Positions 3,061-42,381 of a stretch of 64,000 bases of DNA are shown piece after piece. The translations under genes and the position numbers were made by a program. Numbering within the stretch: position 1 is the first letter of the stretch; each line of letters starts with the position of its first letter. Source of the stretch: Candidatus Edwardsbacteria bacterium RifOxyA12_full_54_48 (GTDB taxonomy: Bacteria; Edwardsbacteria; AC1; EtOH8); NCBI GenBank assembly GCA_001777915.1, contig MFFN01000009.1, positions 2,783-66,782 of the forward strand. Reading direction: 5' to 3'. A model generated the notes under the pieces. That model was not told the origin of the DNA, made no database searches, and saw only the letters and a program-made list of their open reading frames with translations.

Positions 3061-3378
3061 ATGAAGATCAAAAAAAGCGACAGCGTCATAGTAATAGCCG
3101 GCAATGACAAGGGCAAGAAGGGAAAGGTCCTGAAGATTTTGCCGGATAAGGGACGGGCCATCGTGGAGGGGGTTAATTTCATCAAGCGCCATACCAAGCC
3201 CCGCAAACAGGGCGAGAAGAGCGGGATCTTGGAGAAGGAGGCGGCCATAAACCTCACCAACCTGATGGTGGTCTGCACCAAGTGCGACAAGGGGGTCAGG
3301 GTGGGCATCCGGACCCTGGCCGATGGCAAGCGGGCCCGGGTCTGCAAGTCCTGCGGCGAGATGCTGGACAAAGAATAG
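3061..3378 (+). CDS. rplX: 50S ribosomal protein L24
   Basis: KIKKSDSVIVIAGNDKGKKGKVLKILPDKGRAIVEGVN (KOW motif), in the conserved spc-operon position. Confidence 0.9.
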   Translation: MKIKKSDSVIVIAGNDKGKKGKVLKILPDKGRAIVEGVNFIKRHTKPRKQGEKSGILEKEAAINLTNLMVVCTKCDKGVRVGIRTLADGKRARVCKSCGEMLDKE

Positions 3379-12988: not shown

Positions 12989-13531
12989 ATGAGACACCGT
13001 AAAGATACCGTCAAATTAAGCCGCACCCGGTCCCACCGGGCCGCATTGGTCAGCAACATGGTGACCTCCCTGTTCAAATACGAGCGGATAAAGACCACCA
13101 TCACCAAGGCCATGGTGATCCGGCGCGACGCCGAGCACATGATCAGCATCGCCCAGAAGGGCACCCTGGCCGCCCGGCGCCAGGTGGCCACCGTGGTCAA
13201 GGACCAGACGGTGCTGAGGAAGCTGTTCGATGTGATCGTCCCCCGGATGAAGGACAAGAAGTCGGGCTTTATCTCCATCGTCAAGCTGTGGCCCCGCCAC
13301 GGCGACGCCGCCCTGCTGGCCCAGATGGAGCTGTTCGGCGCTCCGGACAAGGTGAAGCCCGAGGAGGCCGGAAAGAAGGCCAAGGCCGCACCCAAGAAGA
13401 AGCCCGCCTCCGCCAAGGCTGCGGCGGACAAGTCCGAGAAAAAGGAAGAGGGCGAGAAAAAGGCCCCCAAGGCCAAGAAGGAAAAGCCGGAGAAGAAGGC
13501 CGTCAAAAAAGAGGCCAAGAAGGCGGAATAA
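12989..13531 (+). CDS. rplQ: 50S ribosomal protein L17 with a ~60-aa Lys/Ala/Glu-rich tail
   Basis: MRHRKDTVKLSRTRSHRAALVSNMVTSLFKYERIKTT; last gene of the alpha operon. Confidence 0.94.
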   Translation: MRHRKDTVKLSRTRSHRAALVSNMVTSLFKYERIKTTITKAMVIRRDAEHMISIAQKGTLAARRQVATVVKDQTVLRKLFDVIVPRMKDKKSGFISIVKLWPRHGDAALLAQMELFGAPDKVKPEEAGKKAKAAPKKKPASAKAAADKSEKKEEGEKKAPKAKKEKPEKKAVKKEAKKAE

Positions 13532-13550
13532 TATCCTTTGAACAATGCGG

Positions 13551-13582
13551 GCGCAGGGTGATTTTCACCTTGCGCCTTTTTT
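13551..13582 (+). terminator. Intrinsic terminator of the alpha operon (repeat copy A)
   Basis: GCGCAGGGTGA-TTT-TCACCTTGCGC hairpin (11 bp, one G.U pair) followed by TTTTTT, 20 nt after the rplQ stop. Confidence 0.8.
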
Positions 13583-13650
13583 ATGAATCAAACGGGAAAA
13601 GCAATTAACTTTGGAATACATCAGCCTGGATCTGCCCCTGGCGCAACGTT

Positions 13651-13820
13651 GTTACTTTCTTGTGACCAAGAAAGTAACCAAAGAAGTCACAACCGCCCAG
13701 TTGCGCGGCGGGCAGGGCGTTTGCTCCGGCATTCATTGGACCAGAGCCGGCAGAAAGCAGATAACGCAATGAATGCTTTTTCGGAGCTGCGGCAATGCCG
13801 CTCCACTGAAGGCGGGGACC
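13651..13820 (+). repeat. Copy 1 of a ~170-bp hairpin-headed repeat element (MITE-like or structured RNA)
   Basis: It starts with a perfect 12-bp-stem hairpin GTTACTTTCTTG-TGAC-CAAGAAAGTAAC. It aligns without gaps to the reverse complement of 42141-42312. Confidence 0.6.
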
Positions 13821-13889
13821 AGAAAGCCAGGAAATTTGTGCCTATTAGCGGTTCCATTTTATCCGAGCACAGTCGTGGGATTGTTAACT

Positions 13890-13924
13890 GCGCAGGGTGA
13901 TTTTCATCTTGCGCCTTTTTGTTT
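13890..13924 (+). repeat. Second copy (B) of the rplQ terminator hairpin
   Basis: GCGCAGGGTGATTTTCATCTTGCGCCTTTTTGTTT has one substitution relative to copy A. It shares the TTTTTGTTT tail with copy C. Confidence 0.75.
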
Positions 13925-13939
13925 GCCAGAAAATAATGC

Positions 13940-13968
13940 TTGACAGGTTATGGCAATAATGATACTAT
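13940..13968 (+). promoter_or_regulatory. Sigma-70-type promoter
   Basis: TTGACA, a 17-nt spacer, then TACTAT, with TG at the extended -10 position. Confidence 0.5.
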
Positions 13969-13974
13969 GCAATA

Positions 13975-14193
13975 AAGTTTGGTATATGGTAAAAAATGAT
14001 GAATAAAAGCGTAAAAATATATTCGTTTGGCATATACCTTGCCAGACCAGACCAGACCAGACCAGACCAGACCAGACCAGACCAGACCAGACCAGACCAG
14101 ACCAGACCAGACCAGACCAGACCAGTTATATAAGTTATTACCGACAGAAAACGTCCCGTCTTGCTTCCCGCAAGGAAGCAGGGCGGGTTTTTT
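13975..14193 (+). ncRNA. Candidate ~215-nt small RNA or 5' leader carrying the ACCAG array
   Basis: It is delimited by the promoter at 13940-13968 and the terminator at 14155-14193. No RBS-preceded ORF lies inside. Confidence 0.3.
14041..14125 (+). repeat. Pentanucleotide tandem repeat: GCCAG plus 16 perfect ACCAG units
   Basis: Counted directly in the sequence; 85 nt with no interruptions. Confidence 0.97.
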
Positions 14194-14198
14194 GTTTT
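14155..14198 (+). terminator. Intrinsic terminator or attenuator hairpin
   Basis: CCCGTCTTGCTTCC-CGCAA-GGAAGCAGGGCGGG (14-bp stem, two G.U pairs) followed by TTTTTTGTTTT. Confidence 0.65.
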
Positions 14199-14245
14199 AA
14201 GTTTTCCCACCTATTTTAATGTGAGTATGAAAGGAGGTGAAACTT

Positions 14246-14596
14246 GTGGCAATAAGAATTGGACGCAGCTTTGCCGATCTGATAAGCATATTGGAGCAGG
14301 TCACGGCTGGCCTTAAATCGGCTGCCGGCGACGCCAAGCAAAAGGCTTATGCGTTGGAACTGGGTAAATATTTGAGTGTTTTGCGTGCATTGGATGAAAA
14401 GCAGGAGAAGGCCAAGGCCGAACTGCACAAGCTTTCCAAGGACTTGAAGAAAAACGAAACCGAAGTGCGGTTGCTGCTGGGCAAGGTGGTAAGCTATTTG
14501 GAATCGGAATATGGGAAATCTTCGCCGGAACTGCAAAAGTACGGGGTGGCCCGCAGGCAGCCGGGCGGGAAAAAGGGGCCCAGGGTAAAAGCCTAG
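14246..14596 (+). CDS. Hypothetical 116-aa helical/coiled-coil protein
   Basis: An in-frame GTG lies 8 nt after AAGGAGG; the track ORF starts at 14237. The sequence is Lys/Glu/Leu-rich and I recognise no family. Confidence 0.5.
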   Translation: MAIRIGRSFADLISILEQVTAGLKSAAGDAKQKAYALELGKYLSVLRALDEKQEKAKAELHKLSKDLKKNETEVRLLLGKVVSYLESEYGKSSPELQKYGVARRQPGGKKGPRVKA

Positions 14597-14778
14597 TGTA
14601 TTAGAAAAACAGCACACAGTATCTCGGGGTGGTATCCAGGTATTATGTTAATATACGGCATTAGTATGTCAAGGTAATCTACTATTAAACAATAGAATAT
14701 TATAGTATTGTTTATATTTATAATAAACTGAAAATGGTTGGCCAAACTGAAATATTAAACGTAGAAAGAAGGTTTTAT

Positions 14779-17700
14779 ATGATAAAGCGAATAATACTAA
14801 GTGCGATGCTTTTGTTGGCGTTTTCTAATTCGTTTGCTGCTTTTGGAATTAAGTATGTTCCAATAAAAGATACAATATTATTATCACCTGGTGAATCATT
14901 TTCTGGTAGCGTGTATCGTTATGCTTGGTCGAACGAACCTGGTTGGTACACCTTTATAGATGATTGTATACGCCCATTGTTTGACCGAAATTTATCTTTT
15001 AATAGTGGTTGGCCTTATGTGCTAGATACGGGAAATAATAAAATTCATGTCAGAGGGTTAGATTCTGATAGTACTTGGGGTTTAAATGCACCTAGTACAC
15101 ACTATGCAAGCGGATTTTGCACATATTCACTATGGATTGATCCAGACGCAACGCCGAGCAGTACATTGTATGCCGTTCATGTTCTTAATGGTGGGTCAGA
15201 TATTGGGAATGCCGTTCATGTTCTTAATGGTGGGTCAGATATTGGGAATGCCGTTCATTTTAAAGTTGTAGCTAAAAAGCCGAAAGGATGTGATGGAATA
15301 GGGAATCCTGTATCTGCTCTATATGGCAATAAAATTCTTGATGAAAATGATATTTCGTATAAAGATTTATATTTCCAAAGAAAATACGCAAAAGGAATAA
15401 AATCATTAAGTGATAGCAGTAAATATTGGAGAAAACCATTTGGAAGCATTGATTGGAATCATAGTTGGAATATATATCTTACTAAAAGTTCTAATAACGA
15501 TACTATAATATTGATTGATGGCATCAATGGTTGGAATAAATATTTACGTATTTCTGGTAGTACAGATTATTTATCAGAGCGACAGGACGGAAATTATTTG
15601 GATAGTATTACCGGCGGGGGGTGGAATTTAAATAAATCTGACGGTACCAGGTATAGATTCAATATTTATGGCACAGTGGATAGTATAATTCTGAAAAGCG
15701 GCAAGTTTTATAAACTATGGCATGCTGCAGATAGCACATACCTTGATAGCATTTCAAGTTATTGTGGTAGCAACCTAACTTTACGCTATGGTGTTTCAAA
15801 TCAATTATTAAGGTTGTTTTATGATTCTTTAGAATATTACGTTGAATATAGATATGATACAACAAGAGCAGGTATGAATATCAGTCAAGTAATTTCTCAT
15901 ATTAACAGCGATGGTTCGGAGAACATTTTAAGCAGATTTTATTACAATGGCGATATTACTAAAAGTATAAACGGGGATTATGGTTCTGGCAGATTGTCTG
16001 TATATCAAAGGGGTTTAGGTTGTATAGACACAACCTATAGAGGTAGTAATAAAAAATATGATCGTCTTTGTTGCTGGTATGATTCAACTAATAACAAATT
16101 ATGTTATCAGGAAATGATAAAAGGCGATAACGATACTAATATAACAAACGACAAGGTGGTTTATAAGGCTTATATAAAATATTTCTTTAACTCATCAACT
16201 ACTACAGGATATGATAGTACTAAAGTATACTACTGGGAAGAAAATTCGATAATAGGTGCACATGATCCTACTAATCACAACTTTAATCCTAAGGACAGCC
16301 TTGCTGCCTGGACCGATAACGAAAAATATTTTATAAAAACTTTAATATTCAACAAGGACGGAACCAAATACAAGGACATGACCTATAGCCCCATTACCGG
16401 GATTACTGTTACTACAAAAGATACAATTTATGACAAGGATTACAATCCCGGTTTGGTGATTGGCCCCAATGACGACAGCACGAAATATTATTACTCCACC
16501 TATAAAAACCCCGGTGACACTACCACCCGCTACTGGCCCAGCCCCAGCAAGGTAAAATACCCCAACGGGGATTCGGTGATGACCTACTTCTCGGCCAAGG
16601 GGGATTCCAATTACCGGCTGCCGGATTCGAGCCGGGACGAGATGGGGCGGATAACGGTCTACCATTACGATTCTGAATACAACGATACGGCAGTGGTGTA
16701 TAAGAACCGGGTGCTGGCCGACGGCGAGGGCAGCAACCACGACGTGACCACCAGATACCATTACAACAGCAAGGGCAACCTGATTGAAACCCTGGATCCT
16801 CTGGGGCACAAGACCATCATGCATTACACCGATTCCGATACCGGGCAATATATGATAGAACAGCGGATAGACATGGGAACATCCGGGGAGGGTAACGAGG
16901 ATATAGTCACCCAGTACGGGTATAATTTGAGTAATGGGACTATGGATACCATGACATTCTACCGGGATTACCCCAACAATCCCAGCCGGACCTATTATAC
17001 CTACGACCAGTTCAAGCATCTGGTAAAGACGGTTTATCCCGATACCGCCAGGGATTCCATGGTTTACGACCTAAAGGGTAATCTGCTTAAAAAATACACC
17101 ATCAAGACAGATACGCTTTATAAGGCGGAATACGAATACGACCCGCACGACCATCTGACCAAGCTAAAGGAATACCGTTCGCCCAACGATTCGGCCAATG
17201 CCTATGATTCCACCCTGTATGCCTACAACCTACACGATAAGATGATATCCCAGACCAACGCTTTGGGTAAAATTACCAATTATACTTACTGCATGGACCG
17301 GTTGGTCAAAATCGCCTATCCCGATACCACGTATGATAGCATGGGCTACTGGCCCGGGGGCGATCTGAAGTTCAAAAAAGACCGCAAGGGCCAGGTGACG
17401 TATTACCAGTACGACGGCTATTCCGCCGGCTGCGGCTGTATGTCGTCCAGCCGCTCAAGATTGGCCAAAAAGTATTATTACGACAGCTTGGACCAGTATG
17501 TCAACGGGTTCAACTATCCTTCTGATTCGGTGATCTACGATTATGACCAGGTTGGCAACCGCACAAAAATGGTTGACAAAAACGGAACTACGATGTATTC
17601 TTACGACGGGCTTTATAGGCTGCAAACCGACTCCTGCGGCTATTTGAACACCAAGAACAGATACCAATATGATATGGCCGGCAACCGGACCCGGTTGAAG

Positions 17701-19245
17701 GTTTATAAGGGCGATGACACTACTATTTGCTATCTTGACCAGAATGATACTTTATATGATAATGCCAATCGGTTGGGGCGCACAACGGTGTCCGGGGATA
17801 ACTACGATTTTACCTATTGGGATACCGGCATACCAAAGAGGATAAGCTATCCCACCTATGGTTTTTATTTATACGAAGACTATTGGGCTACACCCCGTGG
17901 TTATATTGATTCTATGAAAACAACTTACAGAGATGAACAGGGAACCTTTGTATGGTTTAGGAATAAATATACTTACAACGGCTTGGGCGACCGGCTTACC
18001 AACTACGTTTACATGACGCGTCCCGGCACTTCGGTGCTTTCCGGCACGATAAATTATACCTACGACGGCCTGCGGCGGCTGAAAAAAGTGCAGAACCCGG
18101 CCGGCTTCAACAATGCGGCCACCATAGATTACGCTTATGACGGTCTCGGCAACCGGCTTTCCAAGTACCGGAGCAATGGAAACGACACCTCCTACGCATA
18201 CAACCAGGCAAACAATCAATTGACAATTTACGATAACATACCGCCCAGCGCGGAGGGATTTTACAACTACTACGACGCCAACGGCAACATGACCACCAGA
18301 TCCGAATGGGCCGAATGGTATTTCAGCTACGACTATGAGAACCGCTTGACAAAGTGCAAAACGGAGAGCAGCGACAGCACCTTGCTTTATTACAATGGCG
18401 ACGGGGCAAGGTTAAAAAAGGTGGGAACGAATGACAGCTCCAAGCAGTATATACCGGACGGCATGTATTCGGTGGTGGAAAGAACCAATAGCGACAGGCT
18501 GCGGTACAAATACGTTTACGCCAACGGCATGCTGCTGGCACGCACAGACAGTTCTGGCAATACCTACCAATACCAGCATAATGCGCTGGGGAGCGTTATT
18601 GGGGTTAATGATAAGAGTTCGGCGGTGTATAAAAGTTATCTGTACGACGAGTTCGGGGATTCTTTAGGGGCTTGGGGCAGCCTGAGCAATAGCTATCGCT
18701 ATACCGGGCAGGAATGGGACGCCTTGCCGCTGAAAGGGTACAATTTACGGGCACGAGAATATTACCCGAAAGTCGGCAGGTTTATGCAGAATGACCCGAT
18801 AGGTAATGCAGGCGGTAGTTTGAATTGGTATTTGTATGTGGCAAATAATCCGGTGAATTATATTGATATTCTTGGATTGAGTGAATGTACTCGTGAAGAA
18901 ATGGTTAACGATGCCGCAGGTATTATGGGTAAGTCTATAAGGTTTTATCGTAATAACGTAAATAGTGGTATGGATTGTGCTCATTGGGCAAAGGCATTTC
19001 AAAATATGTTTGGTACCCCAAATACTAAATGTTGTAAAATGACAGATGTAGGTTATTGGTGGTTTAATAATCGTAATTGGCCAATGCATAATTTAATACG
19101 TGTTGATTGCACAAGTAAATGTGATGATGATAAATATATTTTCTTTATTGATGGATGGTTGGCTGCATTAATTGGTAATAAAACGCCAATATTCTTCGAT
19201 ATGCCTGGTTCACAACCTACGGGCTACCCTTGGGGAGGAAATTAA
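14779..19245 (+). CDS. RHS/YD-repeat polymorphic toxin, 1488 aa, with a Sec signal peptide and a variable C-terminal toxin tip
   Basis: MIKRIILSAMLLLAFSNSFA signal peptide and many YD repeats (YDGLGNR, YDMAGNR, YDANGN). The RHS core end reads RYTGQEWD...NLRAREYYPKVGRFMQNDPIG...NNPVNYIDILGL (ends at 18879), followed by a 121-aa tip. Confidence 0.9.
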   Translation: MIKRIILSAMLLLAFSNSFAAFGIKYVPIKDTILLSPGESFSGSVYRYAWSNEPGWYTFIDDCIRPLFDRNLSFNSGWPYVLDTGNNKIHVRGLDSDSTWGLNAPSTHYASGFCTYSLWIDPDATPSSTLYAVHVLNGGSDIGNAVHVLNGGSDIGNAVHFKVVAKKPKGCDGIGNPVSALYGNKILDENDISYKDLYFQRKYAKGIKSLSDSSKYWRKPFGSIDWNHSWNIYLTKSSNNDTIILIDGINGWNKYLRISGSTDYLSERQDGNYLDSITGGGWNLNKSDGTRYRFNIYGTVDSIILKSGKFYKLWHAADSTYLDSISSYCGSNLTLRYGVSNQLLRLFYDSLEYYVEYRYDTTRAGMNISQVISHINSDGSENILSRFYYNGDITKSINGDYGSGRLSVYQRGLGCIDTTYRGSNKKYDRLCCWYDSTNNKLCYQEMIKGDNDTNITNDKVVYKAYIKYFFNSSTTTGYDSTKVYYWEENSIIGAHDPTNHNFNPKDSLAAWTDNEKYFIKTLIFNKDGTKYKDMTYSPITGITVTTKDTIYDKDYNPGLVIGPNDDSTKYYYSTYKNPGDTTTRYWPSPSKVKYPNGDSVMTYFSAKGDSNYRLPDSSRDEMGRITVYHYDSEYNDTAVVYKNRVLADGEGSNHDVTTRYHYNSKGNLIETLDPLGHKTIMHYTDSDTGQYMIEQRIDMGTSGEGNEDIVTQYGYNLSNGTMDTMTFYRDYPNNPSRTYYTYDQFKHLVKTVYPDTARDSMVYDLKGNLLKKYTIKTDTLYKAEYEYDPHDHLTKLKEYRSPNDSANAYDSTLYAYNLHDKMISQTNALGKITNYTYCMDRLVKIAYPDTTYDSMGYWPGGDLKFKKDRKGQVTYYQYDGYSAGCGCMSSSRSRLAKKYYYDSLDQYVNGFNYPSDSVIYDYDQVGNRTKMVDKNGTTMYSYDGLYRLQTDSCGYLNTKNRYQYDMAGNRTRLKVYKGDDTTICYLDQNDTLYDNANRLGRTTVSGDNYDFTYWDTGIPKRISYPTYGFYLYEDYWATPRGYIDSMKTTYRDEQGTFVWFRNKYTYNGLGDRLTNYVYMTRPGTSVLSGTINYTYDGLRRLKKVQNPAGFNNAATIDYAYDGLGNRLSKYRSNGNDTSYAYNQANNQLTIYDNIPPSAEGFYNYYDANGNMTTRSEWAEWYFSYDYENRLTKCKTESSDSTLLYYNGDGARLKKVGTNDSSKQYIPDGMYSVVERTNSDRLRYKYVYANGMLLARTDSSGNTYQYQHNALGSVIGVNDKSSAVYKSYLYDEFGDSLGAWGSLSNSYRYTGQEWDALPLKGYNLRAREYYPKVGRFMQNDPIGNAGGSLNWYLYVANNPVNYIDILGLSECTREEMVNDAAGIMGKSIRFYRNNVNSGMDCAHWAKAFQNMFGTPNTKCCKMTDVGYWWFNNRNWPMHNLIRVDCTSKCDDDKYIFFIDGWLAALIGNKTPIFFDMPGSQPTGYPWGGN
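15171..15258 (+). repeat. Perfect 39-bp tandem duplication plus a 10-bp partial third unit inside the RHS N-terminal region
   Basis: TGCCGTTCATGTTCTTAATGGTGGGTCAGATATTGGGAA occurs twice, giving AVHVLNGGSDIGN twice in the protein. Confidence 0.95.
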
Positions 19246-19246
19246 A

Positions 19247-19681
19247 ATGTTAAAAAATATTAAGTATCAAGAATTATTTATTTTTATTATTGCTATTTTA
19301 TTTGTGACGGTTTTCGTAATAATATCTTTTAATAATGCAATATTTATTATTTCACCTTTAGGTATTGCGCTTTATGTTGTAGCAATATTACTAACTGTTT
19401 CATTAACTATAACTAAAGCAAAGGAAAGACGGCGGAATATACGCTTTGTAATAATCAATCTAATATTTTTATTATTTCTTTTTTCTATAGCACTTAGATT
19501 AGTCTTACATGAAAAAACGATATTGCCAATAGTAAAATATAATACATTATCAAATAAATTATATTTATATTCCGCATTATTAGCAATAATATATTTTATA
19601 ATATTTGGCCTGATTGATTTTGTTAAGTTTATTGTTGAACGCTTTAAGGTTTTTATAACTACATGCAAAATGGCCCGATAG
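19247..19681 (+). CDS. Putative immunity protein 1 (polytopic membrane protein)
   Basis: The ATG lies 1 nt after the RHS stop and is preceded by GGAGGA. It has about 4 hydrophobic helices, is AT-rich, and its last codons run into the orphan-2 homology block. Confidence 0.55.
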   Translation: MLKNIKYQELFIFIIAILFVTVFVIISFNNAIFIISPLGIALYVVAILLTVSLTITKAKERRRNIRFVIINLIFLLFLFSIALRLVLHEKTILPIVKYNTLSNKLYLYSALLAIIYFIIFGLIDFVKFIVERFKVFITTCKMAR

Positions 19682-20109
19682 GCAATAATGGCGGGAGTTT
19701 GAACTGGTATTTGTACGTGAGAAATAATCCGGTGAACTGGACAGACCCGACGGGTTTGAAAACGTGCATTAATTGGGGTCATACCCCCTGGGTAATAAAA
19801 AATAAAATATACGGTTCATGGGAATTTTATACAATTTTCCCACCCGACAATGGCATTTTGCCAGGGAAGGCTCTATGTACTTGGAAGCGTACTTATTCAT
19901 ATGTAAAAAGTGCTATAAAAATAAAAAAATGTTGGGAAGATTGTAGTGATCAATTTTCGTGGTTTGAAATGGATGGTGAGACTGCTGTTGATGTTTCGAC
20001 TTTTAATTATAAGCGTACTGAAGGACGAAATATCCCAGGGGTAGGTTCACAATGCAGACATCCAAATAATTCTGCGTGGATTACTGTAGGACCAGGAAAC
20101 GAGCATTAA
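19663..20109 (+). CDS. Orphan RHS C-terminal cassette 2 (core remnant plus unknown toxin tip), probably not independently expressed
   Basis: MQNGPIGNNGGSLNWYLYVRNNPVNWTDPTGL matches the end of the RHS core and is followed by a 116-aa unrelated tip. There is no RBS, and the ATG lies inside the preceding ORF. Confidence 0.6.
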   Translation: MQNGPIGNNGGSLNWYLYVRNNPVNWTDPTGLKTCINWGHTPWVIKNKIYGSWEFYTIFPPDNGILPGKALCTWKRTYSYVKSAIKIKKCWEDCSDQFSWFEMDGETAVDVSTFNYKRTEGRNIPGVGSQCRHPNNSAWITVGPGNEH

Positions 20110-20173
20110 AGTGGGAAATAAATATTGAACGGATGAATATTTATCCGCAATAAGTCAATATAAAGGAGTTGAT

Positions 20174-20692
20174 ATGACTAAGATATTGAAATCTATATTT
20201 GTAATAACATTTTTTTTAGTATGCTTTAATTTATTTTTGTTTACTGTTTTAATGATAATGCCACAATTATTTTTTACAACATCAGTGTTGGTATATGCAA
20301 GAATTATTTGTGCAGTTATTTGCACCGTTTTATCATTGTATTTAGTGGTAAAATATATTAAAAAAGAGATAAAAACCACTAATTGGTTCAGATTAAATTT
20401 CAGAGATAAAATTATTGTTTTTTGTTGCGTGTATTTTGTTTTTTCGGCTTTGTTGCATCCATTAACTATTACTATCGTTACTTTTGTAAAACAACCAATT
20501 GATAAAGTTGTTTTTGATTTTATCGATTTGATATTCTTGCGTATTATAAAATTTCCAGGTTATTATATTACTGCTATCAAACCATCACGTTATATTTATC
20601 AAGGCTTAGGCCAAATAGTAACAACAATATTTTGGACATTTATATATGCACTGTATGTTTATATAAATGGAAGAAAGAAAATTGTTAAATAA
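20174..20692 (+). CDS. Putative immunity protein 2 (polytopic membrane protein)
   Basis: AAGGAG RBS; 172 aa with about 5 hydrophobic segments; directly downstream of orphan tip 2. Confidence 0.55.
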   Translation: MTKILKSIFVITFFLVCFNLFLFTVLMIMPQLFFTTSVLVYARIICAVICTVLSLYLVVKYIKKEIKTTNWFRLNFRDKIIVFCCVYFVFSALLHPLTITIVTFVKQPIDKVVFDFIDLIFLRIIKFPGYYITAIKPSRYIYQGLGQIVTTIFWTFIYALYVYINGRKKIVK

Positions 20693-20710
20693 TTATAAGC
20701 CCCACAAAAT

Positions 20711-21535
20711 GTGGGGCTTTATTACAAAGGCGATGGGGTGCGCTTGGCCAAGAGCACCAATGCCGATGTTGAGAAGCGATATGTGGTTGACGGCATGAAC
20801 ACGGTGGTGGAGCAGGATGCCGGCGGGTATTTGCGGTATAAATATGTGTATGCCAACGGAATGCTTTTGGCCAGGGTAGACAGCCTCGGAAGAAAATTCT
20901 GCTACCACCACGATGCCCTGGGAAGCACCATTGGTATAAGCGATAGCAATTACGCTGTTTACAAGAGTTACCTCTATGATGAGTTTGGCGACAGCCTGGG
21001 GGCCTGGGGTTCTACCCCTTATAATGCTTATAGGTACACCGGGCAGGAGTATGATGGAAAGCCTGCATATGCTTACAACCTGCGGGCTAGGGAGTATTAC
21101 CCCAAGCTGGGCCGTTTCATGCAGAATGATCCGATAGGGGACCAGGGCGGGAGCTTAAACTGGTATTTGTACGTGGCAAATAATCCGATTAATGCCACGG
21201 ACCCGACGGGATTGTTCGCGTGGTATATGCGGTATGGCCATTATTGTGGCAAAGGACAAGATGCTGGCCGACCTACGCCGATTGATGCACTTGATGCTGC
21301 TTGCCAAGCACATGATGACTGTTATGGCAAACTTAATCTTGCTGGGATTGTGGGTGCTTTAGATCCATTCTTGCAGAGTGAGCGAGCATGTGGGAGAGAT
21401 AAATGCGATAAAGCACTGTGTGAAGCTGCTAAGAACTTCAAGATACCTTATACCGATGCTGCCGGAATGATGGCGGCGAGAAATGCACGTGGTCTTATAA
21501 TCCTAAAATTCTGTAGCGGTACTTCTGTCCAATAA
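20711..21535 (+). CDS. Orphan RHS C-terminal cassette 3: ~168 aa of RHS core plus a phospholipase-A2-like tip
   Basis: It aligns with main-gene residues from LYYNGDG to DPxGL (ends at 21214). The tip contains YGHYCGKGQDAG and DALDAACQAHDDCYG. The only in-frame start is a GTG inside a hairpin, with no RBS. Confidence 0.65.
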   Translation: MGLYYKGDGVRLAKSTNADVEKRYVVDGMNTVVEQDAGGYLRYKYVYANGMLLARVDSLGRKFCYHHDALGSTIGISDSNYAVYKSYLYDEFGDSLGAWGSTPYNAYRYTGQEYDGKPAYAYNLRAREYYPKLGRFMQNDPIGDQGGSLNWYLYVANNPINATDPTGLFAWYMRYGHYCGKGQDAGRPTPIDALDAACQAHDDCYGKLNLAGIVGALDPFLQSERACGRDKCDKALCEAAKNFKIPYTDAAGMMAARNARGLIILKFCSGTSVQ

Positions 21536-21556
21536 TTTAGTTAAGAGGAAACGAAA

Positions 21557-21919
21557 ATGAAAAATATAAAGAATGTGATTTTAACTATCGGTATCATCTT
21601 TGGCATAGTATATTTCAAGGATGTACCAAAGGCAATATTTACAATGGGGAATAATATACAGTTTTGGGAATATATATTTTTTATCACCGGGCCGGTAGCG
21701 ACTTTACCCATAGCAGTAGTAGGTTGCTTTCATTATAGACTCAGTGGATATATATTATTGATGTGTTCGGTGATAACGTGTATATCCATCATATTTTGTA
21801 AAAACCAGGAACATAAACTGTGGTTAATACTATATTTTAGTCTGCCAGTACTAATTATGAGTATAGCAATTATTATAACAAGTAGATGGAACGTAAAGCC
21901 GGTAGCAACGCAAACGTAA
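21557..21919 (+). CDS. Putative immunity protein 3 (polytopic membrane protein)
   Basis: AAGAGGA RBS; 120 aa with 4 hydrophobic helices; directly after the PLA2-like tip. Confidence 0.55.
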   Translation: MKNIKNVILTIGIIFGIVYFKDVPKAIFTMGNNIQFWEYIFFITGPVATLPIAVVGCFHYRLSGYILLMCSVITCISIIFCKNQEHKLWLILYFSLPVLIMSIAIIITSRWNVKPVATQT

Positions 21920-21936
21920 AGTAAAATAAAATAAAG

Positions 21937-21965
21937 AAGCCCCGCCGTATGGCGGGGCTTTTTAT
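21937..21965 (+). terminator. Intrinsic terminator ending the RHS cassette array
   Basis: AAGCCCCGCC-GTAT-GGCGGGGCTT followed by TTTATT. Confidence 0.75.
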
Positions 21966-22029
21966 TGGTGTTCGTAAAGCCTGGCTTAATGCCGGGCTTT
22001 TTCCCTTCGATAGAACTCAGGGCATGCTT

Positions 22030-22413
22030 TTAACGGCCGTTTGCCGTCTTTAACTGCTGTGGCGGCTTACGGAGCTTTTCCCGTTCGAGGTAGGTATCCA
22101 ATAGCTGGACTATCTGCTTGCGTTCCTTGGCAGGCAGCTTCTCCAATTGGCTTAAACGGCGGTAAAGCCTGTTGTCTTTGGTCTTGGGCGCCGCTTTCAA
22201 TTTATCCAAGCCCATCAATTGGTCTACGGTCACGTCCAGGGCTTTAGAAATCTTGGGCAGCAGGTGGGCCGGTATGTGCTTGGTCTGCTTCTCGTAGTAG
22301 GCGATCACCAGTTGTGGTATGCCGGTCTCGGCCTGCAGGTCCCGCTGTGAATACCCGGCTTCCCGGCGCAGGGTGATTTTCACCTTGCGCCTTTTTGTTT
22401 TTTCGGGTATCAT
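22030..22413 (-). CDS. XRE-family helix-turn-helix transcriptional regulator
   Basis: ITLRREAGYSQRDLQAETGIPQLVIAYYEKQTKHIPAHLLPKISKALDVTVDQLMG is a classic Cro/C1-type HTH. The start is uncertain: TTG 22437, ATG 22413, or the GTG inside repeat copy C. Confidence 0.75.
   Translation of the reverse strand: MIPEKTKRRKVKITLRREAGYSQRDLQAETGIPQLVIAYYEKQTKHIPAHLLPKISKALDVTVDQLMGLDKLKAAPKTKDNRLYRRLSQLEKLPAKERKQIVQLLDTYLEREKLRKPPQQLKTANGR
22366..22403 (+). repeat. Third copy (C) of the rplQ terminator hairpin, overlapping the 5' end of the XRE gene
   Basis: GCGCAGGGTGATTTTCACCTTGCGCC followed by TTTTTGTTTTTT; the hairpin is identical to copy A. Confidence 0.8.
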
Positions 22414-22423
22414 TAACCACAAT

Positions 22424-23542
22424 ATGATAAAAACCAACCTTCATATATCGCTGATATCCGGGCTTTTCCTGCTTCTGTTGGCAGTACCCGTATTTGCCCA
22501 GGTCAAGGGCATGTGGGTGGTGCGCTATTCGCTGACCTCGCCCCAGAACGTCAAGAAGATCGTGGCCCAGGCCCACCAGGCCGGGGTCAACAACCTGTTC
22601 GTCCAGTTCTACGCCCGGGGCGAGGCCTATTACGATTCCAAGCTGGCGCCTACCGCCGACTGCGTGACCAGGAATTTCGACCCGCTGGCCCTGATGGTCA
22701 AGGAGTGCAAGGCCAGGGGGATCAAGATCCACGCCTGGATCAATGTCTATTTCGTCTGGTCGTCGGACCGCAGGCCGCGGGACGGCCGCCATGCCTATTA
22801 CCAGGATGACGGCTGGTTCGCCGCCGACCCCCAGGGCCGGAGTTTAAAGGATTACTCCCAGAAGGAGCTGGGTCAGAGAAACCTGGAGGGGGTCTACCTT
22901 TCGCCCTCCAGCCCGGAGGTGAAGACCTATCTGCGGGAGCTGGTGAGGGAGATCCTTTTCAAATACGACGTGGACGGCATCCACCTGGATTATGTCCGGT
23001 ACGGAAGCATCAATTATTCCTACGACGTCTCCAGCCGCACCAGCTTCTACAACCAGTACAAGGTCGATCCCTTCGCCCTGCTGGAGGGGAACCGGGCCCT
23101 GGAGCCGTATTGGGCCACCTGGCAGCAGTGGCGGATGTACCAGATATCCGACCTGGTGGCCCAGCTGAAGTTGGACATCATGAAATTCAACCCCTGGGTC
23201 CAGCTGTCGGCGGCGGTCAAGCCCGACCCCGACGAGGCCCGGCTGTCGTTCGGCCAGGACTGGCCGGCCTGGCTGGAGAACCGCTGGGCCGATTTCGTGG
23301 TGCTGATGGACTATTCGTCCAATACCGGCACCGTGGTGCGGCTGGCCCGGAAGGCCGTAGCCTACAAGGGGCAGGGCCAGGTCTATGTGGGGCTGGGGGC
23401 CTGGCGGGACAGCATGGACGGGCTGATGGAGAAGATCCGGGCCCTGCGCAAGGCAGGGATCAACGATATCGTCCTTTTTTCCTATGACGGGCTGGCCCAG
23501 CGCAAGATAAGTTTCGAGATGCTGAAACACCGGGGATTCTAG
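22424..23542 (+). CDS. Glycoside-hydrolase-like GHL10 (DUF187/YngK-type) secreted or lipoprotein
   Basis: MIKTNLHISLISGLFLLLLAVPVFAQ signal peptide, then VKGMWVVRYSLTSPQNVKKIV...NNLFVQFYARGEAYYDSKLAP...DGIHLDYVRY. Confidence 0.65.
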   Translation: MIKTNLHISLISGLFLLLLAVPVFAQVKGMWVVRYSLTSPQNVKKIVAQAHQAGVNNLFVQFYARGEAYYDSKLAPTADCVTRNFDPLALMVKECKARGIKIHAWINVYFVWSSDRRPRDGRHAYYQDDGWFAADPQGRSLKDYSQKELGQRNLEGVYLSPSSPEVKTYLRELVREILFKYDVDGIHLDYVRYGSINYSYDVSSRTSFYNQYKVDPFALLEGNRALEPYWATWQQWRMYQISDLVAQLKLDIMKFNPWVQLSAAVKPDPDEARLSFGQDWPAWLENRWADFVVLMDYSSNTGTVVRLARKAVAYKGQGQVYVGLGAWRDSMDGLMEKIRALRKAGINDIVLFSYDGLAQRKISFEMLKHRGF

Positions 23543-41929: not shown

Positions 41930-42312
41930 GCTTTCTCTTTAAAGAGAAAGCTACAAAGTCACGCCAAAGGCGGATCCGCCTATATGGATTTACCTGCGGT
42001 GGCGGAAGAACTGTCGCTGCACCGCTGCCTGGAAGTTTTAATATCCATCTGCCTAAATGTCTTGACCACGAAACAGGGCACTCGCAGGCAAAACATTCTT
42101 TACGGCAGCTTTTGCCAAACAGCAGCGCTGATGCGACCCGGGACCCCGCCTTTAAGTGGAGCGGTGTAAGCATCAGCCCCGATAAAGCAGTCATTGTGTC
42201 ATTTGCATCAGGCTTGTTCTGGTTCAATGGATGCCGGGGCGCAGGTCTTACTGTCCGCGCAACTGGGCGGAAAGGACATCTTTGGTTACTTTCTTGGTTA
42301 CAAGAAAGTAAC
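41930..42312 (-). repeat. Copy 2 of the hairpin-headed repeat element (170-bp conserved core 42141-42312 plus a copy-specific extension ending in a second hairpin)
   Basis: The reverse complement of 42285-42312 is GTTACTTTCTTG-TAAC-CAAGAAAGTAAC, and the following 145 nt align without gaps to 13679-13820. The far end carries the GCTTTCTCTTTAAAGAGAAAGC palindrome (41930-41951). Confidence 0.6.
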
Positions 42313-42381
42313 AGGTAAGACATTGCAGGAATGCTTTTGTACAAACTAAATACCGAAAAAATATAATTATAAAAGAGAGTT

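Follow-up and report, generated by a model that had tools for sequence, protein, structure and literature searches.

Results

A terminator hairpin delimits two segments between rplQ and GHL10

We analysed a 64-kb stretch of contig MFFN01000009.1 from Candidatus Edwardsbacteria bacterium RifOxyA12_full_54_48, referred to here as the window, in whose coordinates all positions are given. Between rplQ and the gene for a GHL10-family glycosyl-hydrolase-like lipoprotein (GHL10), the window carries three direct copies of a hairpin (copies A, B and C), and the copies bracket two segments, the second of which is an island with an RHS/YD-repeat toxin locus and an XRE-family regulator (Table 1). The 26-nt core of the hairpin, GCGCAGGGTGATTTTCACCTTGCGCC, occurs on the + strand exactly at 13551–13576 and 22366–22391 and with a single C>T at 13890–13915, whereas the number of chance matches expected from shuffled sequence is 0. 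The repeat unit grows to ~31–35 nt once the preceding G and the T-run are counted. Copies A and C have GGCGCAGGG...GCGCCTTTTT in common, and copies B and C share the tail TTTTTGTTT. A first-pass annotation of this DNA, made from the letters alone, had described the three copies and the tail common to B and C, and both descriptions hold.

All three copies score as intrinsic-terminator-like on the + strand (12–13 pairs, a 3-nt loop and 5–6 T). The predicted RNA hairpin energies are −22.6 kcal/mol on the + strand and −17.7 kcal/mol on the − strand for copies A and C, and −16.3 and −8.9 kcal/mol, respectively, for copy B. At copy A the stem starts 18 nt past the rplQ stop (13531), and the GHL10 ATG (22424) sits 33 nt beyond the end of copy C. 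The G+C-rich stem, the T-run and the place after a gene are those expected of a rho-independent (intrinsic) terminator. Together with an orthologous hairpin that follows rplQ in a more distant relative (L079; L-numbers denote individual loci from relatives or from contigs of the same population), the score and spacing agree with the earlier proposal that copy A terminates rplQ transcription.

The A–B segment measures 313 nt at 50% G+C and contains, as had been noticed, a repeat that recurs in inverted orientation at about 42130–42313. The B–C segment measures 8450 nt at 41% G+C, against about 55–63% in the flanks, and its earlier description as an AT-rich accessory island holding a pentanucleotide array, RHS genes, orphan cassettes and the XRE regulator is correct.

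The hairpin is confined to this locus. We found no copies outside the rplQ–GHL10 gap in the 64-kb window, in ~175 kb of DNA from ingroup relatives or in 84 loci in all, and the terminators elsewhere in the window differ from it in sequence. The many genome-wide intergenic copies that characterize repetitive extragenic palindromic (REP) sequences and bacterial interspersed mosaic elements (BIMEs) are not seen in the window and the 84 loci, which are not complete genomes. Exact-pattern scans of genome, metagenome and viral collections gave no match to the window's exact variant (AGGG); relatives carry AAGG, so the genome and metagenome scans say little about them. Variants within one genome tend to match, with AGGG in the window and L075 and AAGG in most others, and L006 carries one hairpin of each variant. 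No tRNA or tmRNA gene offers itself as an integration target in the window, where the sole tRNA lies at 30.2 kb.

Occupied and emptied sites in relatives

Comparison with related loci shows that the hairpins are true module boundaries at an old insertion hotspot. Four modules, E1 to E4, recur in the gap; the A–B and B–C segments of the window are E3 and E4. In L073 (a 2.68-Mb contig) and L082 the gap contains a single hairpin between rplQ and GHL10, the empty site that the first-pass annotation had proposed to look for. L006 has E1 between two hairpins; this module of about 0.7 kb contains a DUF559 endonuclease gene (Pfam E = 1.4e-27). L070 reads hairpin, E2, hairpin, E3, hairpin, GHL10, with the homologue of the A–B segment present and the RHS island missing; its E2 (0.67 kb, 32% G+C) encodes a 155-aa multi-pass membrane protein that is immunity-like. 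In L007 the order is hairpin, E1, hairpin, E2 fused to orphan RHS cassettes and XRE, then hairpin. Conversely to L070, L008 has the RHS island straight after the first hairpin and without E3 (the contig stops within the island). L075, ~93% identical to the window, has the same A–E3–B–E4–C layout, including the private C>T of copy B.

All module ends fall no more than 1 nt from the left edge of a hairpin, and the following module begins within the T-run. E3 and E4 in the window and E1 to E4 in relatives are flanked at both ends by the target-derived direct repeat.

In the outgroups L009, L052, L050 and L071 (GHL10 61–66% identical), rplQ is followed by a different terminator, GCGTAAAGC...GCTTTACGC plus a T-run, which directly abuts the GHL10 ATG. 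Lineages at ~73–75% identity have the same outer stem, GGCGYAAGG...CCTTGCGCC plus a T-run. An orthologous hairpin follows rplQ in L079 and precedes GHL10 in L083 and L080, none of which has XRE at this position, indicating that both the rplQ–GHL10 adjacency and the hairpin predate the insertions. Its predicted fold and its orthologues identify the hairpin as the intrinsic terminator native to rplQ in this Edwardsbacteria clade. As nothing separates the outgroup T-run from the GHL10 ATG, expression of GHL10 may rely on transcription that reads through the rplQ terminator.

In one lineage (L080 and L081, 9850–10030), GHL10 and its upstream hairpin come after gyrA rather than rplQ, indicating that the hairpin travelled with GHL10 in a regional rearrangement. 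In the more distant L084 (5700–6874), the rplQ–GHL10 gap is filled by ~1.1 kb of other DNA with a 138-aa open reading frame (ORF) without a recorded Pfam match, whose predicted product, on direct reading of its sequence, may resemble the four-helix-bundle proteins of 23S rRNA intervening sequences. The gap is thus a hotspot well beyond the hairpin-bearing clade.

Module order and divergence

RpoA of the window shares 99% identity with that of a Candidatus Edwardsbacteria metagenome-assembled genome. The window population was found in dozens of assemblies through exact-protein look-ups with L17, GHL10 and XRE. Each distinct place found among the same-population contigs has the island layout, and nearly all others were counted as similar. 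As the same layout was returned at every distinct place, the island appears to be fixed in the population.

Among relatives, clade I (the window, L075, L006, L007 and L070) has core genes that are 90–96% identical to one another. Clade II (L008, L082 and L076) is about 83% identical to clade I, and the core genes of L073 are 88% and 82% identical to clade I. Hairpin–XRE junctions and RHS islands occur in both clades, and the emptied sites come from clade II and L073. The modules are as diverged as the core genes around them. E1 is 92% identical between L006 and L007 (rpoA–rplQ 93%, GHL10 90%), E2 is 92.5% identical between L070 and L007 (90% and 92%), and E3 is 96% identical between the window and L070 (95% and 92%). 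The order E1 < E2 < E3 < E4 is kept in every genome. This constant order and the core-like divergence point to an old array with exact hairpin-to-hairpin deletions rather than to two recent insertions, and on these comparisons such a course would be the simplest history. The first-pass annotation had proposed two successive integrations at the hairpin; the insertion-site boundaries stand, and two recent events in this genome do not, since L075 inherits the layout.

The interior of the island behaves differently from its edges. Identity between the window and L075 amounts to 77% for the RHS gene and 79.5% for XRE, compared with 92–94% in the flanks. XRE itself is a mosaic: its central third in the window and L007 is 89% identical to that of L074, a locus from a TA06-labelled metagenome-assembled genome, and 71% identical to that of the clade-mate L075. 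An interior diverged far beyond its flanks, together with this mosaic, indicates replacement by homologous recombination.

A regulator with a hairpin-coded N terminus

Copy C is also part of a gene. The XRE-family helix-turn-helix (HTH) regulator takes its first 16 codons from copy C and the adjoining flank, and its HTH_3 match (E = 7.3e-9; 36 bits, cut-off 23) runs from profile position 4, inside the hairpin-coded part. We found 10 homologues. Those outside the locus begin ...FGxRLAxLRREAGYSQ, a normal HTH_3 first helix, and the three XRE proteins of this locus begin MIPEKTKRRKVKITLRREAGYSQ; in the family alignment, the canonical FGxRLAxLRREAG is swapped for the hairpin-coded KRRKVKITLRREAG at this locus only. 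At the DNA level, 21 nt of an XRE gene of the type in L074, the nearest intact homologue, have given way to 24 nt that correspond to the hairpin and T-run in reverse complement, and the join falls at GGCGCAG, which is both the hairpin start and the Leu-Arg codons of XRE. The ATG and codons 2–7 lie in the flank between the hairpin and GHL10, which has a homologue in L083 and L080.

Because orthologous hairpins exist in lineages without XRE and homologues elsewhere keep the canonical helix, the N terminus derives from the host, and XRE is, as far as sequence comparison can tell, a chimera. The earlier suggestion that the insertion had supplied or rebuilt the N terminus of this gene is therefore upheld. 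Its candidate GTG start inside the hairpin is not; the start is most likely the ATG at 22413, which is used by public gene callers and kept in orthologues. The chimeric gene is under purifying selection, with a ratio of nonsynonymous to synonymous substitution rates of 0.14–0.42. An AlphaFold model places a helix at residues 4–18, at a predicted local distance difference test score of 64 that is too low to carry weight.

Immediately right of copy C, a stretch of 21 nt (reverse complement TTAATGATACCCGAAAAAACA) agrees with the 5′ end of the L074 XRE gene (TTAAACATACCCGAAGAGACT) at 16/21 positions. We considered that these 21 nt are XRE-derived, which would make one-hairpin sites scars, and changed this view on finding the homologous flank in L083 and L080. 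Judging from these homologues, the flank is more likely native than XRE-derived. The sister clade has ATACAATAA where the ingroup has ATACCCGAA, and patchy conversion from incoming XRE alleles is a possibility for the 16/21 match.

The ATGs of XRE and GHL10 are divergent and 10 nt apart (22414–22423), a spacing that places the promoters of the two genes inside the other gene or further off.

Mobilising functions

No integrase or transfer-gene Pfam domain is found among the island ORFs or the precomputed gene calls, in line with the first-pass annotation, and there is no Phage_integrase match among the genes called from SecY to about 10 kb past GHL10. A candidate for the lost function is provided by L074, where XRE is followed by genes, divergent from it, for a 900-aa DnaG-type primase and two tyrosine integrases. 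The L074 XRE gene is convergent with RHS and immunity genes, the same RHS–XRE arrangement as in the window. Of the two earlier suggestions for the mobilising function, loss is plausible in view of this neighbourhood; for action in trans, no candidate enzyme was found.

A search for terminal repeats of the L074 element gave only inverted repeats that surround its two integrase genes, 0.9 kb short of the contig end, and the element ends were not found. These repeats (583–671 and 3249–3335; 41–62 nt, 79–83% complementary) bracket two adjacent tyrosine recombinase genes, which suggests that the pair may be invertible or transposable. A transposase target-site duplication was rejected as unlikely, as the repeats are 31–55 nt long and E3 and E4 have neither a transposase nor terminal inverted repeats.

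Discussion

Origin of the array

We lean towards an origin by Campbell-type insertion at the hairpin, with accretion and decay of the inserted DNA into integrase-less remnants. Foreign DNA would have entered the clade ancestor at the hairpin by single-crossover, attachment site (att)-like insertion, each event leaving a hairpin copy on both sides, and repeated insertions would have built a tandem array of a DUF559 nuclease module (E1), an immunity-like membrane gene (E2), a non-coding structured element (E3) and the RHS island with XRE (E4), of which the window retains the last two. The carrier of E4 was probably L074-like, with RHS genes, XRE, primase and two tyrosine integrases. A later deletion at the 7-nt microhomology GGCGCAG would have taken away the primase, the integrases and the 5′ end of XRE, and would have joined what was left of XRE in frame to the hairpin and flank on the right, which now supply the Met and the first helix. 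The modules would thereafter have been integrase-less, like cis-mobilizable elements, and the hairpin copies would have acted as exact breakpoints for module loss, giving the differing states in relatives, one-hairpin sites included. Meanwhile, the island interior, comprising the RHS tips and XRE alleles, would turn over by homologous recombination. The recombinase-made insertions, the integrase-removing deletion and the process behind hairpin-to-hairpin loss are the steps that we infer.

At their left ends, E1 and E2 carry a diverged copy of ~25 nt from the native right flank, beside a hairpin that is itself identical. For example, E2 reads TTTTTTGTTTTTGGTGTAGTATTAC, where the native flank is TTTTTTGTTTTTATTGTATGATTAC in L083 and TTTTTGTTTTTTCGGGTATCATTAAC in the ingroup. 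Incoming DNA carrying a copy of an att-like site would give this pattern of a diverged flank repeat next to an identical hairpin, and either selection or conversion keeps the hairpin unchanged as the co-duplicated flank drifts. The att-like, site-specific reading of the hairpins is plausible but unproven.

Several findings weigh against a Campbell-type origin. The RHS island of L079 has the hairpin on its left only, and its right end has another terminator and another promoter; the island may have come without duplicating the hairpin, the right copy being of different origin. No recombinase accompanies the modules, and tblastn searches with the L074 integrases and primase returned nothing in the window or in the available DNA of 11 relatives. 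L074 itself lacks the hairpin, so that an intact, integrase-bearing relative with the same att site is missing from the comparison. No free hairpin-bearing element or circular junction was seen, including in viral contigs, and the exact-protein look-ups among assembled contigs gave no excised or alternative layout in the same population, and thus no sign of current excision. The constant order and core-like divergence need only one array-forming episode plus deletions, which short-homology recombination could explain. Finally, a simple deletion–fusion does not account for the 16/21 match to L074, which falls at the corresponding position of the XRE gene.

Some of these points sit more easily with an alternative that we regard as possible but doubtful, in which no dedicated recombinase took part and the rplQ–GHL10 gap is a hotspot of the common sort, its content swapped through homologous recombination in the core genes on either side. 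Unequal or illegitimate recombination or replication slippage would have duplicated the hairpin, alone or together with its flank, and modules would be lost by RecA-dependent or slippage deletion between the 31–55-nt direct repeats. The strongly diverged island interiors and the XRE mosaic show that homologous replacement does occur here, and the constant module order, the match between module and core divergence, the L079 island without a right-hand hairpin and the failure to find an integrase all count in its favour. Yet four unrelated modules are joined to the hairpin at the same nucleotide, where repeated illegitimate events are not expected; the hairpin is identical among copies although the co-duplicated flank has diverged; and the nearest intact XRE–RHS element has two integrases beside XRE.

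It is unlikely that the terminator hairpin doubles as the site of a recombinase encoded elsewhere, forming an integron-like array without a linked integrase in which one event recruited the hairpin as the code for the first XRE helix. It is quite unlikely that a host-encoded enzyme uses the hairpin in trans, in an integron-like or Xer-dependent array whose cassettes each end in the hairpin. The perfect palindrome allows a reading in which 10-bp inverted arms flank a 7-bp asymmetric spacer, the cassettes are small, unrelated, constant in order and devoid of recombinases, and the tendency of copies within a genome towards one variant (AGGG or AAGG) would fit such a system; but direct reading of the sequence reveals no attC R or L box, no GTTRRRY and no similarity to dif, the site occurs at one locus only in all DNA examined, L006 has mixed variants, no candidate enzyme was found and the population shows no present-day variation.

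We consider it very unlikely that the copies are kept because the palindrome is an operator of the XRE regulator, with their position at module edges secondary. On this view, operators would lie at the start of XRE itself, before the island promoter and behind rplQ. A perfect 12-3-12 palindrome is typical of an HTH-dimer site, copy B lies 25 nt upstream of the best island promoter and copy C overlaps the XRE start. However, the hairpin is equally conserved where there is no XRE at the site (L073, L082, L070, L006 and the sister clade), its T-run is on one strand only, both substitutions seen keep G–U pairing on the + strand while weakening the − strand hairpin, and the identical 26-mers at each module edge are left unexplained. 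That the hairpin is a generic high-copy terminator or REP-like sequence with three incidental occurrences, a possibility the first-pass annotation had raised against itself, is close to refuted: it looks like a standard intrinsic terminator, but its confinement to the gap, the lack of matches to the window's exact variant in the collections scanned and the different sequences of the other window terminators all speak against it.

Comparison with known systems

Returning to Campbell-type insertion and decay, the locus is a new example of known tandem island accretion at one site. Cis-mobilizable elements (CIMEs) of the ICESt1 type lack integration and transfer genes, have direct target repeats at both ends and stand in tandem at one site; their arrays are thought to form by integration, decay and further integration, and modules are lost or excised at the repeats (PMC5704250). 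The flanking target repeats, tandem modules, missing integrases and empty sites in relatives are shared with CIME accretion. In contrast, what is repeated at this locus is the hairpin of an intrinsic terminator behind rplQ and not a 3′ gene end, no cognate integrase or intact element with the same site is known, no excision is observed, and the host is an uncultured member of the Edwardsbacteria.

The Dehalococcoides ssrA islands are tandem, low in G+C, located downstream of one conserved gene and bounded by short target repeats, they vary in number by strain, and some are without integration modules (PMC3146451). These islands are delimited by a 20-bp stretch of the tmRNA gene, and in most of them a serine recombinase module persists next to the left attachment site (attL) (PMC3146451), whereas no module here keeps a recombinase. 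PAISt of Streptomyces turgidiscabies integrates at an 8-bp palindrome at the bacA 3′ end by means of its own integrase, and its excision has been shown experimentally (PMC4057263). The palindromic site and the internal site copies that delimit modules are common to both loci; in PAISt, modular excision proceeds through those copies.

Integron arrays and integrase-less attC clusters consist of small unrelated genes in the same orientation, each followed by an imperfect hairpin-forming palindrome. Unlike attC, the hairpin here is much shorter and has no R or L boxes or GTTRRRY (R′′–L′′...L′–R′), there is no IntI or attI platform, and one module is an 8.4-kb multigene island. Rhs/YD loci have an immunity gene downstream of a full-length RHS gene, together with displaced C-terminal tips that have immunity genes of their own, and such loci are A+T-rich with fast turnover. 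This model accounts for the inside of E4 and not for the hairpin repeats or the non-RHS modules.

The locus offers a nucleotide-level view of a toxin island and smaller modules gathering at one site, in a phylum known from metagenomes only, with occupied, partly occupied and emptied states all available for comparison. An intrinsic terminator serves as the module-delimiting repeat and, as an unusual detail, a host terminator hairpin came to encode the N-terminal helix of a regulator on which selection still acts. Should the hairpin prove to be a true recombination site used in trans, the locus would represent a new type of cassette system in which a nuclease, immunity genes, an RNA element and a toxin island are inserted and removed at a transcription terminator; if it is not a recombination site, it is a tidy example of island accretion and decay.

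Contents of the modules and neighbouring features

Table 1 Features of the rplQ–GHL10 region and its repeat in the window
Feature	Position	Strand	Remarks
rplQ (ribosomal protein L17)	12989..13531	+	Pfam Ribosomal_L17, E = 2.3e-28; last alpha-operon gene; left anchor, kept in all relatives
Hairpin copy A	13550..13582	+	Predicted native rplQ intrinsic terminator; 12-bp stem, 3-nt loop, T-run
Module E3, non-coding	13583..13889	+	Core of ~180 nt (13650–13830) begins with hairpin GTTACTTTCTTGTGACCAAGAAAGTAAC; same edges in L075 and L070
Hairpin copy B	13890..13924	+	One C>T, giving a G–U pair on the + strand; same substitution in L075
Best sigma-70-like promoter of the island	13940..13968	+	TTGACA, 17 nt, TACTAT, extended TG; 25 nt past copy B
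(CCAGA)16.8 pentanucleotide array	14042..14125	+	Between promoter and first island gene
116-aa protein (119 aa from GTG at 14237)	14246..14596	+	First island gene; no Pfam match
Full-length RHS/YD-repeat toxin, 1503 aa	14734..19245	+	Pfam RHS_repeat and DUF6531
Immunity-like membrane proteins alternating with orphan RHS C-terminal tips	19247..21919	+	
Island ORFs downstream of RHS	19247–19681, 19663–20109, 20174–20692, 20711–21535, 21557–21919	+	Phospholipase A2 domain in 20711–21535
Terminator-like hairpin	21934..21963		Scored on both strands; between convergent island genes and XRE
XRE-family HTH regulator, 127 aa	22030..22413	−	Pfam HTH_3; codons 1–16 from flank and copy C
Hairpin copy C with T-run	22365..22403	+	Its − strand codes for RRKVKITLR of XRE
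GHL10-family glycosyl-hydrolase-like lipoprotein gene	22424..23542	+	Pfam GHL10, E = 5.7e-28; right anchor, adjoins rplQ in outgroups
E3-core paralogue	42130..42313	−	Without flanking hairpin copies

The ~180-nt element of E3 starts with the perfect hairpin GTTACTTTCTTGTRACCAAGAAAGTAAC, followed by CCGCCCAGTTGCGCGG. The E3 core and its inverted copy share 59 nt at 90% identity and are about 75% identical overall, and a consensus fold of the two contains eight compensated pairs. An Rfam search of 13–23 kb gave nothing for this element; the only matches were sub-threshold ones at the 21.9-kb terminator (21917–22014), which the terminator-like hairpin at that position explains. The element could represent a small mobile element or a small RNA not described before.

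Within E4, L008 and L075 retain the best promoter at the left island end, and L079 has an analogous site. The number of CCAGA units varies, with 11 in L075, none in L008 and 16 in all contigs of the window population. The array, which is perfect, sits between this promoter and a terminator-like hairpin at 14155–14187, upstream of the first island gene, and could be a slippage-prone switch. The 116-aa protein is kept in L075 and L008 and truncated in L079.

The remainder of the island has the composition of an Rhs/YD-repeat toxin locus, with RHS repeats, a repeated core end (at 18739, 19618 and 21074) and an orphan tip carrying the phospholipase A2 domain. The membrane proteins are predicted to have an immunity function from their position and membrane character. 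The RHS gene also holds a perfect 39-nt tandem repeat (15170–15258, 2.3 copies) that codes for the peptide AVHVLNGGSDIGN, and same-population contigs from other samples differ by exactly one 39-nt unit, the sole difference among them.

Module E1 (L006 11609–12369; L007 11651–12297) encodes a 122-aa DUF559 protein with a Vsr-like endonuclease fold. It has GACTCAYCCCC / GGGGTGAGTC inverted repeats, together with several CCCCTCTC...GAGAGGGG hairpins, on either side, and may be a small selfish element in its own right.

Elsewhere in the region, the gene calls for the matching gap of the window population (L003 17720–18348, ~30.1–30.8 kb of the window) contain no counterpart of an 87-aa GIY-YIG gene that L075 has between the ClpP gene and the next gene (2158–2421), a difference that may be another small insertion polymorphism.

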